Below, piece after piece: positions 12,001 through 15,000 of a stretch of DNA of 64,000 nt. The position numbers are program-made. The stretch is from the NCBI GenBank assembly GCA_910583945.1, contig CAJTYF010000003.1:3466-67465 (forward strand), given 5' to 3'. Positions within the stretch are counted from its first letter, which is position 1. Each line of letters begins with the position of its first letter. Source of the stretch: an uncultured Bacilli bacterium (GTDB taxonomy: Bacteria > Bacillota_I > Bacilli_A > RF39 > UBA660).

Positions 12001-15000
12001 ACTATACAGTAGTTAAAGTAGCAGTAGTAACATCCACAGCTTGAAGACCTTTAGACGTTTCAATCAATTTAAAGTCTACTATATCTCCTTCTTTTAAAGT
12101 TTTGAAACCTTCTTTAGAAATAGCAGAATAATGAACAAAGATATCTTCTAAATCGCTGCATTCAATGAATCCATAACCTTTATCGTTATTAAACCATTTG
12201 ACTTTTCCACGCATTTTTAACACCTCTCCTTCTTCCTCACAACTTAACAATACCACTAGAAAATCTTGCGTACAACAAAATACGTTCGACAAATTTTGCA
12301 TCTAAAAAAATAAGCAATTTCTTTGTCCGATATTGTCTAAAAATAAGTATTTATTGTTCTGTTTTTTCACAATTTTATTTTTAAAAATAAATCAAATATT
12401 TTTAAGCAATTAAAATTACAATTAAAAAAAACAGCATTTTAAAAAAATAAATAAATGTTATGATTTTGGTGAAGGTGATTTATGAAAGAAGTATTCGTCA
12501 ATCGTTCTTTAACCTATTTGATAAAGAATAACGCTTGTAAAAACGATCAAGTTAATACTTTTCGATATGTTTTAGAATCTTTGTACTCGCTTGTTTCAAA
12601 AACAGGTGCAGTTCTCATAATTTCTATTTTTCTAAATACTTTTAAAATTACTTTCATTTCTTTGCTTTTATTTTCTATATTAAGAGGGTTCACTTTTGGA
12701 ATACACGCTTCAAAAAATGCCTATTGTTGGATTACAACTATTGGGATTTACAGTATTTTTCCATTTTTAATACAAAGAATAAATATGACGAAAGAGTTCA
12801 TTACTATTTGCTATTTAACAGTTTTTCTTTCCATTTTATTCTTTTCTCCAAGTGATACGCCAAAGAGACCTCTTATTAACAAAAGAAAAAGAAGAGTCAA
12901 TAAAATTATTTCTCTTGGAATTGGAATCATTTATATGTTATTAAGTTTTTTTATAAACACTAATGATTTTTATAAAATTGTCTGTTTCATATTTATGTTA
13001 ACAAGTGTTTGTATTAATCCTTTAACTTATAAAATATTTAAAGTTCCTTATAATAATTATAAAAATTATTATAGTTAATATTGGTTTAAATTAATTGAAT
13101 AGATGATTTAAACAAGGAGAGGAGGAGTGTGATTATGGCTAATGTATTTGCAAATGTTTTATCATTTTTAGCTGGAATTGTTAACAATGGCGTTTCAACT
13201 TTTACTTTATTTGGAACTTGGGCTGAAGAAGAATGTCCTAAAGAAATGCTTTAATTAATTAAAGCACGTCGTTTACTATTAACGTGCTTTTTTTATTTGT
13301 AAATCTATATAATAAATATCATTAATTATAGTAATTTTCTCTTTTACTAATTTATTTTTCTTAATAGAAAATAATCCTAAACCACTTCCACGATTTTTAG
13401 TTGAATAATACTTATTTCCAATTCTATCAATATCAATGCAATTTTTAAAAGTATTACCAATTTTGATGCAAACGTTATCTTTATTTTCATAAATATCCAT
13501 AGTAATTACTGGATTTTCTGTCTCCTCACAAGCTTCAATTGCATTATCTAAAGCTATTCCTAAGCATTCAGAAATACTATTAAACGCTTGAGGTGACAGT
13601 TTACTAAAATAGTCTGTTTTAATTTTATTGTGAATCATAATATCGTAGTCTTTATTATATAATTTTTCAGCAACTATACCTTTAATTCCATTGGGAACAT
13701 TATAAATATTATTATTTCTTACACTAAAAGTTGTTTCTTTGTTTAATAAATCTTCAATTAAAGCATTTATCTTTTTATTCCCAAAAGCTTTCATACCAGA
13801 AAGTTTATGATTTATATTATGTTTATAAATTTTATATTCATCTAAAAATTTTGCATATTTACTATTGTATTCTATTAATTTATGATTAGAATTTGTTAAA
13901 ATTTCCTCGTGATATCTTAACCGAATTATATCTGTAAATAAGTATATAAAAATAATAAATATTAAAACTAAAAGTGTTATCGAATCTTTATTTCCAAAAT
14001 TTTGTACATTAAATGTTGATATTAGTGCAATACTTAAAAATAGCAAAATAATAGTATTTTTTATGGCATTATTCTTTAGGAAATAATTAATAATATTATG
14101 AAAAAATTTATTTATAAAGGGTATCAAAATTAATAAATATTGAATTACGCAAACTGAAAAATTTAAAAGTACATTTATTAAATTTAGTGAATTAGCTGTT
14201 TCATTATTTTTAAGAATACCACCTAGTAGTAAAATATTCGTTAATAATATTTCTATAAGTATAATTAAAGCATAAAGCAAAACATAGTTTATAATTATTT
14301 TTTTATATTGGTCATTAAAAACAAGTTTTAATTCACAACTAAATATAATGATGTTTAAAAATAGTTTAATTACAATAATATTAAAATTGTTATTTAACAT
14401 TATGAGTATTACAGCCACTAACATAATTAGTATGTTTTTCAAATTTATATTTATTTTATGATTGTTCAATTTCGCATAACATAGATTATAAAAAATCAAG
14501 CTTATAAAGATTATTAATACAAAACTAAGAGAGTTAATTATTGCATTCATCATAGCTTTCTAACTCCTTTTTGAATTTTTTAGATAGCATGTTTACTCTT
14601 TTTCCAGTATCTAATTCAAAAGCACTGTTTTTCCAATCGTAGGATTGAACTCGTTCAGTATTGGCAATGCAAGCACGATGAACAATTTTAAAACGGCTAT
14701 CTAAGTATTTCATACAATCAGTAATACTTAGGTAAAGTGCATAACTGGTTTTATCCGTGTTAATAATAATTTTTCTAGCTTCTTTATCTCTATAAATATG
14801 AGTAATGGAGCGATAAAAAATACGAAGGCTTAAGTCTCGACTGTCATATTTAAACATACGTTTATCATAATTACGGTTAATAATAAGTTTAATATCTTTC
14901 TTTAGCTTTTTATCAAAGTCATGAAATTTTTCAATAAAGTCAAAAACTTCATAAACATTTCTATAAGCTGTTTCAAACATTTTGTCATGATGCGTCGTAA

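Follow-up and report, generated by a model that had tools for sequence, protein, structure and literature searches.

A conserved agrD gene with threonine at the predicted ring-closing position in an uncultured gut Bacilli bacterium

The rings of autoinducing peptides (AIPs), the signals of agr-type quorum sensing, are described as Cys thiolactones or, rarely, as Ser lactones (PMC8251862, PMC11953309, PMC12312760), and rings of 5, 6 and 9 residues as well as tail-free forms that rearrange to lactams are on record (PMC3673130, PMC7028047, PMC8251862, PMC11953309, PMC12312760). In the AgrD of the Clostridium acetobutylicum type (...GK-C-VLVTL-YEPKMPEELL...), the Cys and the five residues that follow it (C+5) are boxed as a six-membered ring (PMC10301443, main text and supplement); the synthetic R6T0 peptide of this species, which has no tail, is active, and its Agr system controls granulose and sporulation (PMC10301443). 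GBAP, the AIP of the Fsr system of Enterococcus faecalis, is an 11-mer closed by a Ser3-Met11 lactone into a 9-residue ring (PMC7028047, PMC12312760). Here we consider an agr locus carried by 64,000 nucleotides of contig CAJTYF010000003.1 (positions 3,466 to 67,465, forward strand; hereafter "the window") from assembly GCA_910583945.1 of an uncultured Bacilli bacterium, and in particular its agrD, a small open reading frame (ORF) lying between agrB and a convergent agrC-like kinase gene. At a fixed distance before the charged tail, where a Cys (rarely a Ser) would be expected, this AgrD has a Thr: the position is conserved, and the residue is neither of the two nucleophiles described. From the sequences compared below, the signal would be a six-residue Thr-lactone, c(TLFGTW), closed by Thr24 and cut by AgrB at W29|A30, a reading to which we give a probability of roughly two in three.

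The agrD ORF runs from the ATG at 13135 to the TAA at 13252-13254 and its 39 codons encode MANVFANVLSFLAGIVNNGVSTFTLFGTWAEEECPKEML; an earlier note on this DNA, made from the sequence alone, had described a 39-codon ORF with a ribosome-binding site and an ATG at this place, and both its coordinates and its translation are exact. The start codon stands 56 nt past the agrB stop, on the same strand and behind a Shine-Dalgarno run of its own (GGAGAGGAGGAG), the GGAGG core of which is 9 nt from the ATG and recurs at the equivalent place in all relatives; 25 nt separate the end of agrD from the end of the convergent kinase ORF. The amphipathic leader claimed for the product is borne out, as residues 1-18 have a hydrophobic moment (muH) of 0.41 at 100 degrees, a value reached by 0.3% of shuffled sequences (0.16 +/- 0.08). 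The sole Cys of the peptide is C34 (codon 13234-13236) and lies within the tail, in ECPKEML, as had been noticed. The window thus holds a complete agr module, with AgrB, AgrD, AgrC-like and AgrA-like proteins all present, and the circuit proposed earlier agrees with the Pfam and NCBIfam assignments of the AgrB, of the AgrC-like GHKL kinase and of the Response_reg plus LytTR regulator.

The G+C content of the window is 30% and, since chance ORFs of this size are common at such a composition (dozens of 25-50 codons occur in the region), the reality of agrD had to be judged by comparison. A scan of contigs with AgrB gave a single species-level relative, and sequence diversity was therefore taken from a protein collection instead. 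The nearest species-level genome, that of an uncultured mouse-gut Bacilli (a metagenome-assembled genome), has an AgrB 83% identical to that of the window and keeps the 39-codon frame. This frame is likewise kept in all 12 fetched loci whose agrB is at least 47% identical to the window's (L001-L005 and L010-L013 among them), and a small ORF of 36-40 codons is found in four more distant loci (L006-L009). In all 13 related loci, the small ORF is directly downstream of agrB and co-oriented with it, and in the 12 fetched contigs with enough flank the order is invariably a CSD gene, agrB and the small ORF, met by the convergent kinase and LytTR regulator genes; the regulator is usually followed in related contigs by a 200-aa gene and spoIIID. 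A profile search found the agrD frame in at least 157 protein clusters (90% identity), nearly all of exactly 39 aa, and a search of the representatives with a 9-sequence profile added four distant members. The conservation in relatives that the earlier note had proposed to check is therefore found both in related loci and in these clusters. No other AgrD-like ORF was found within the 64-kb window, and neither of the two outcomes that the earlier note had named as refuting it is observed.

Across six loci, the leader has a ratio of non-synonymous to synonymous polymorphism (pN/pS) of 0.45 and the tail one of 0.50, as against 1.03 for codons 24-29: purifying selection acts on leader and tail, between which the core is hypervariable. 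The exact peptide of the window is called on 24 public contigs, as an unnamed product, and NCBI gives one of its Cys-type cousins the name "cyclic lactone autoinducer peptide [Bacilli bacterium]"; JGI names relatives in the same way. The ORF is a genuine and conserved agrD, that is, the gene of an autoinducing-peptide precursor. Several public calls of related peptides (P0119, P0130, P0153, P0165 and P0175-P0180) use in-frame starts further upstream and so reach 46-70 aa; their conserved part always starts at MA(N/T/S)..., and the extended calls are probably miscalled starts.

Curated hidden Markov models (HMMs) do not recognise the peptide of the window: PF05931, with which the earlier note had proposed to check the ORF, gives no match, and TIGR04223 gives 10.5 bits, under its cutoff of 19. 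These two results weigh against the reading proposed here, although a curated cutoff is an operational test and not a biological one. As the window peptide falls below these thresholds, its family membership was shown through its relatives. TIGR04223 scores 28.5 bits for L006, 26.9 for L007, which is of the Thr type, 24.2 for L008 and 26.2 for L009, as well as 28.1 for P0196, 28.6 for P0199 and 19.0 for P0102, and the relatives that pass are linked to the window peptide at E-values of 1e-8 to 1e-21. When the Thr-type profile (A1) was compared by hhalign with a Cys-type profile made of ten TIGR04223-positive peptides (A5), the two matched with 98.3% probability (E 2.2e-14) in an alignment that is gapless across 39 columns. 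Because the homologous Cys-type cousins and L007 pass TIGR04223, the window peptide can be placed in the AgrD family by homology, even though it misses both the curated thresholds and the Cys/Ser rule.

To decide which residue would close the ring, about 120 relatives were compared, and column statistics were drawn from 102 close relatives of the window peptide. Position 24 is T93/S7/C1/N1, so that eight of the nine substitutions bring in another nucleophile; position 21 is S100/A2, position 22 is T100/S1/N1 and T28 is not conserved. N18 never varies, and conservation is 90-98% at V20, S21, T22 and F23. Much can be learned from the exceptions. The peptide with Cys24 sits in an intact locus, and the agrB beside the sole Asn24 peptide (P0004; L011:77-725) has suffered an internal deletion and a frameshift, its residues 1-133 being in one frame and the alignment resuming at about 175-192 in another; L011 is probably a naturally decayed agr locus, the alternative being an assembly artefact on this 1-kb contig. 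Both Ala21 peptides have beside them a full-length agrB in which the R-x4-G-x-H-x6-C motif is intact, and one of the two belongs to a complete module. In a subfamily of 36-aa peptides (for example ...DNR-T-WWFVW-DEPECPEELL), the ring column is T7/C1 and holds the only conserved hydroxyl or thiol, the registers of S21 (D/S) and T22 (N/T/Q/A) being both variable, and P0187, from the Cys subfamily, has a Ser at the ring column.

The alignments across subfamilies place the ring at the same column. Distant syntenic loci carry canonical Cys peptides (...STA-C-ISLIY-DEPKMPKELI, ...SVG-C-MWLFV-DEPEAPKFMD and ...TQG-C-AFLFI-DEPEMPKCLLEK), and MAFFT puts the ring Cys of all three in the T24 column; hhalign sets T24 on the invariant Cys of the Cys-type profile. 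From the exceptions at positions 24 and 21 and from the subfamily columns, position 24 behaves as the nucleophile site, occupied by Cys, Ser or Thr, and S21 does not. The Ser/Thr lactone suggested by the earlier note from STFTLFGTW is thus the best-supported reading, narrowed to Thr24 and away from S21, T22 and T28. One distant relative, P0200, has a Cys and a Thr adjacent at the ring position (...GASTC-T-HWLFF-DEPECP...); it may form a 7-residue thiolactone or a 6-residue lactone and may represent a transitional form between nucleophiles.

The size of the predicted ring follows from the spacing, in which the nucleophile is followed by five variable hydrophobic residues and then by (D/A/N)-E-x-x-x-P. 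Entropy peaks at positions 25, 26 and 28 (2.6-3.1 bits), and position 29 is always aromatic in the close relatives (W88/F13/Y1). Since this register equals that of the C. acetobutylicum AgrD, the cut is predicted at W29|A30 and the ring as T-L-F-G-T-W. The acidic E-x3-P-K-E tail that would then be released is the most conserved part of the peptide, E31, C34 and P35 being invariant and E37 99% conserved. The acidic tail of the earlier note therefore stands; its alignment with the S. aureus string DEVEVPKEL, a text search for which returned no paper, was replaced by the published alignment of C. acetobutylicum.

Besides the curated models, several points speak against a Thr24 lactone. Within the close family, S21 and T22 are as conserved as T24 (98%) and, because conservation at this level does not discriminate, the case for Thr24 rests on the substitution pattern and on the alignment across subfamilies. 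The lactone chemistry is predicted from sequence only, and the W29|A30 cut is deduced from spacing rules, so that a shift by one residue would give another ring size. Thr carries a secondary alcohol and is less nucleophilic than either Cys or Ser, and its use by AgrB is an assumption. The searchable literature up to 2026 yielded no Thr-linked AIP, which is no proof of absence, nor did we find there any member of the clade that had been cultured or chemically analysed. On the regulatory side, a generic search for LytTR direct repeats in this AT-rich DNA was not significant, and the LytTR boxes are weak in the window, where only the upstream copy (12401-12407) is intact.

If Thr24 is the nucleophile, the pathway could be as follows. 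The amphipathic leader would anchor the 39-residue precursor at the membrane, where AgrB would recognise AEEECPKEML and, through Cys82 and His75, cleave between Trp29 and Ala30 to form an acyl-enzyme thioester. The side-chain hydroxyl of Thr24, the residue found in the nucleophile column, would attack this thioester to give the macrolactone c(T-L-F-G-T-W) and release the tail. A peptidase would then remove the leader and leave zero to few residues of ...VSTF as an exocyclic tail, according to where the mature N-terminus lies. The secreted peptide would be sensed by the polytopic sensor domain of the convergent AgrC-like kinase, which would phosphorylate the LytTR regulator, and the latter probably activates the agrBD promoter.

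A variant of this pathway ends in a different product: were the leader cut at F23|T24, an O-to-N acyl shift could turn the lactone into an all-amide, head-to-tail cyclo(TLFGTW) resembling the clostridial cyclic AIPs (cAIPs). NNGVSTF is nearly invariant and the residues after T24 are hypervariable, which would suit a role of VSTF in processing rather than in the signal itself; in staphylococci, by comparison, the exocyclic tail varies along with the ring. In Ruminiclostridium, AIPs that lack a tail and begin with Cys turn into lactams by rearrangement, and the authors leave open what becomes of tail-free Ser lactones (PMC8251862); the active six-ring R6T0 of C. acetobutylicum is itself tail-free (PMC10301443). 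However, a constant exotail would account for the conserved VSTF equally well, and the residues that precede the ring Thr in the 36-aa subfamily are variable (DNR, STF, SQF, DAR), as would be those of an exotail that bears specificity. That this uncultured, spore-forming gut Bacilli clade has replaced the thiolactone of its AIP by a homodetic cyclo(TLFGTW) seems to us unlikely.

The earlier note had also entertained a linear or otherwise non-canonical signal; on such a reading, AgrB would only cut the tail and leave a peptide ending in ...TLFGTW or another non-canonical product. The window peptide indeed has neither Cys nor Ser at the canonical position, and no documented Thr-linked AIP offers a precedent. 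Yet position 24 is exchanged almost only for Ser or Cys and never for Ala, Val or Ile, which indicates selection for a nucleophile, and the one Asn24 case goes with a broken agrB; in staphylococci, linear AIP analogues are inactive (PMC12312760). The substitution pattern disfavours this alternative, which we consider improbable.

A large ring like that of GBAP, with Ser21 (or Thr22) as the nucleophile of a 9-residue (or 8-residue) lactone drawn from S-T-F-T-L-F-G-T-W, would suit the distance from S21 to W29, exactly nine residues as in GBAP (PMC7028047, PMC12312760), and the 98% conservation of S21 in the close family. The nine-residue ring from S21 was the reading initially favoured, and it was dropped after wider sampling had brought in the Ala21 loci, the subfamily columns and the hhalign comparison. 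Ala replaces S21 beside two full-length agrB genes whose H/C motif is intact, neither Ser nor Thr is conserved at the -9 or -8 register of the 36-aa Thr-type subfamily, both alignments set the ring Cys on T24 and not on S21, and the hypervariable segment begins only past T24; against such a pattern, a ring of this size has little chance of being correct.

C34, as the sole Cys of the peptide and a residue invariant in all 102 close relatives and in the 36-aa subfamily, might be thought to form the ring itself, through a downstream cut (ring C-P-K-E-M) or through an intein-like N-to-S shift at E33-C34. Against this, the ECP tail coexists with a canonical ring Cys in P0147, P0196 and P0199; the position is Met or Ala in other Cys-type cousins; C-P-K-E-M is invariant, charged and followed by a single residue, hence without a recognition tail for AgrB; and the hypervariable segment that covaries with the receptor lies upstream of C34. 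Such a ring is very improbable. The tail Cys34 is thus a trait of the clade, neither a displaced ring Cys nor its substitute, and, if the thiolactone has been replaced in this clade, may be a new clade-specific determinant of AgrB recognition or catalysis. As for a chance, unexpressed frame in AT-rich intergenic DNA, the abundance of chance ORFs of 25-50 codons and the low scores of the curated HMMs are outweighed by a frame, length, start, stop and Shine-Dalgarno sequence kept across loci whose agrB are 34-83% identical, by its presence in at least 157 protein clusters, by the excess of synonymous over non-synonymous changes in leader and tail and by the hhalign E-value of 2e-14, so that this explanation is refuted for practical purposes.

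The AgrB of the window carries the motif HASKNAYC, in which H75 and C82 are 100% conserved among 78 family members, and their spacing of 7 residues is that of H77 and C84 in S. aureus AgrB, a pair on which the processing of AgrD depends (PMC5789755). Neither sequence nor profile searches turned up a solved AgrB structure, and the dyad was therefore mapped by motif spacing and the literature only. We found no AgrB residues that tell Thr-type from Cys-type partners, in a test for which the P0036-P0147 pairing had to be assumed and is not exact; the switch between Cys and Thr as nucleophile seems possible without any obvious alteration of AgrB.

Comparison of the window with L001 outlines a specificity cassette. 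AgrB is 93% identical over residues 1-100 and 73% identical over residues 101-198, the AgrC sensor (1-205) is 64% identical (52-55% in its middle) and its kinase part (206-424) 93% identical, AgrA is 95% identical, and the AgrD core is altered, TLFGTW in the window standing against SLFGNW in L001: divergence is shared by the C-terminal half of AgrB, the core of AgrD and the sensor of AgrC. The specificity groups of staphylococci differ in the same hypervariable cassette (Ji/Novick, Dufour et al.). Since the core lies in this co-diverging cassette, residues 24-29 are implied to be the part that the receptor reads. The sensor-coding part of agrC (13800-14399) also has a G+C content of only 16.7%, against 30% in the window, and is the stretch least conserved with respect to L001.

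Upstream of agrB, the window, L001, L003 and L004 share a TGnTATGAT sequence, read as an extended -10, equally far from the start codon. No good -35 precedes agrBD, and a promoter of this kind would fit dependence on an activator. Of 10 loci, 8 have a half-site of the form TT[ACT]A[ATG][AG]C (TTnAAAC), a motif chosen after inspection of the data, between -81 and -90 relative to the start of agrB; in 5 of the 10 it is repeated 20-21 bp further downstream, whereas shuffles give 0.05 such loci. These LytTR half-sites are suggestive only, and autoinduction of agrBD is a proposal.

The positions of the features are collected in Table 1. The kinase, of the HPK10 type, consists of a hydrophobic N-terminal sensor of about 205 aa followed by DHp and GHKL ATPase domains, and matches staphylococcal AgrC weakly over its full length (3.1e-05, NCBIfam). 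The regulator matches Response_reg (PF00072, 6e-08), LytTR (PF04397, 1.8e-07) and the NCBIfam model quorum_RR_AgrA (NF046049, 4.8e-09); its longest ORF, from GTG 15268, gives 244 aa, orthologues are called at 241 aa, and its true start is probably ATG 15259 (MFKIIVVEDD...) rather than GTG 15268. The agrC and agrA genes overlap by 20 nt. Behind agrD, a hairpin with a perfect 9-bp stem (AAAGCACGT/ACGTGCTTT) and a loop of 12 nt is followed by a T-run and reaches into the 3' end of agrC; it folds with a free energy of -12 kcal/mol (z = -3.5, matched by 0 of 200 shuffles), and a consensus terminator scan, which accepts loops of up to 8 nt, found nothing there, this loop being 12 nt long. The best explanation of this layout is that agrBD forms one transcription unit on the + strand, on which agrCA converges from the - strand.

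Table 1. Features of the agr locus, in positions of the 64-kb window
Feature	Positions	Strand	Basis or remark
Candidate LytTR (AgrA) half-site TTTAAGC	12401-12407	+	Upstream of agrB; post hoc motif
Degenerate second half-site TTAAAAAAAAC (candidate)	12422-12432	+	21 bp downstream of first copy
Putative extended -10 TGTTATGAT for agrBD	12456-12464	+	Conserved TGnTATGAT
agrB, membrane cysteine endopeptidase/cyclase, 198 aa	12482-13078	+	Pfam AgrB PF04647, 5.2e-30; catalytic H75/C82
Shine-Dalgarno run GGAGAGGAGGAG for agrD	13116-13127	+	Direct sequence reading
agrD codons 1-23, amphipathic leader MANVFANVLSFLAGIV, then conserved NNGVSTF	13135-13203	+	
agrD codons 24-29, T-L-F-G-T-W, predicted six-residue macrocycle	13204-13221	+	
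agrD codons 30-39, AEEECPKEML, and stop; predicted AgrB-recognition tail, released on cleavage	13222-13254	+	
Intrinsic terminator of agrBD, stem-loop and T-run	13261-13297	+	Folding
agrC-like sensor histidine kinase, 424 aa	13279-14553	-	HATPase_c_5 (PF14501), 2.3e-12
agrA-like response regulator, receiver and LytTR	14534-15268	-	Pfam, NCBIfam

Directly upstream of agrCA and on the same strand (15937-17863) are spoIIID, a gene for an M23 peptidase (spoIIQ-like) and spoIID; the organism is a spore-former, and its agr may be linked to sporulation as in clostridia. Between spoIIID and agrA, a gene at 15330-15932 (- strand) encodes a soluble protein of 200 aa without a family match, which is also present in L001-L006 and L012 and may be co-transcribed with agrCA. 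Further away, the region 6783-9955 (- strand) encodes a camelysin/TasA-like protein (Peptidase_M73), a pair of small helical proteins, one of 105 aa and a second of 108 aa with a W-V-G motif and a very weak match to WXG100, and a HerA/FtsK-like ATPase of 586 aa (DUF87, 1.7e-23) that matches anti-phage HerA models in part. Relatives carry secA where the window has these genes, which could form a small secretion or defence module. At 10682-11870 (- strand), a 354-aa ORF without a Pfam or NCBIfam family and a 49-aa hydrophobic ORF lie between hibernation-factor and cold-shock genes; as these two flanking genes adjoin each other in L003-L008, the segment is taken to be an insertion specific to the lineage of the window. 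The - strand carries almost all genes of the window, a long ribosomal-protein cluster at about 37-50 kb among them, and agrBD belongs to the few + strand units. Rfam (at the gathering threshold) and tRNA scans of the 64 kb found nothing, hence no RNAIII-like family.

If the Thr-lactone prediction is true, a Thr-linked ring in more than 100 sequence clusters would be the third natural nucleophile of AgrB chemistry, AgrB would be able to acylate a secondary alcohol, and the more hydrolysis-resistant scaffold would be of interest for the design of quorum-quenching peptides. Genome-mining rules and HMMs that expect a Cys or a Ser miss most of the Thr-type family, and the agr systems of uncultured gut Bacilli are for this reason under-counted. 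The variable core and the co-varying receptor suggest, moreover, that pheromone specificity groups are numerous and compete with one another in the gut of mice and humans.

Compared with agrBDCA of S. aureus, the window has the same four components, the same His/Cys spacing in AgrB and the same hypervariable cassette. Unlike it, the window shows a convergent two-operon layout instead of a single operon and no RNAIII-like Rfam match, its ring is predicted as a six-residue Thr lactone and not as a five-residue thiolactone, and PF05931 misses its peptide. The AIP of S. pseudintermedius and S. intermedius offers the precedent of a hydroxyl residue that replaces the ring Cys and is made into a lactone by an otherwise ordinary AgrB (PMC3673130, PMC12312760); in these staphylococci, however, the residue is a Ser, the ring has five residues and the chemistry is proven, whereas the window, from another lineage, has a Thr and a six-residue ring that is predicted only. 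The Fsr system of E. faecalis likewise makes a lactone AIP with a pair of the AgrB/AgrD type, and in the window peptide, too, a Ser stands nine residues ahead of the predicted cut, but the comparative data favour a six-residue ring from T24, and the gene order fsrABDC differs. With the homodetic cAIPs of Ruminiclostridium cellulolyticum, the window would share a possible acyl shift to an all-amide ring if its Thr lactone were tail-free (PMC8251862); in that species, enzyme-primed native chemical ligation proceeds by an S-to-N shift from Cys, whereas the O-to-N shift from Thr is hypothetical.

A close likeness is to the Agr system of C. acetobutylicum. The core registers agree (CVLVTL|YEPKMPEELL against TLFGTW|AEEECPKEML in the window, that is, nucleophile+5 and then x-E-x-x-x-Pro-[KE]-E-L), agrBD and agrCA are separate transcription units in both, and the host of the window is a spore-former whose agr locus abuts spoIID, spoIIQ-like and spoIIID genes. 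The differences are the Thr in place of the Cys, with an oxo-ester predicted instead of a thio-ester, a precursor of 39 aa against 54 aa, agrCA converging on agrBD, and a tail with an invariant Cys before the Pro. In addition, no LanM-like gene was found downstream of the agr genes of the window, where the neighbours are the 200-aa protein without a family, spoIIID and the M23 peptidase, unlike in the C. acetobutylicum type. With these differences in mind, the system of the window would work like a six-ring Agr of the C. acetobutylicum type in which Thr has taken the part of the nucleophile.

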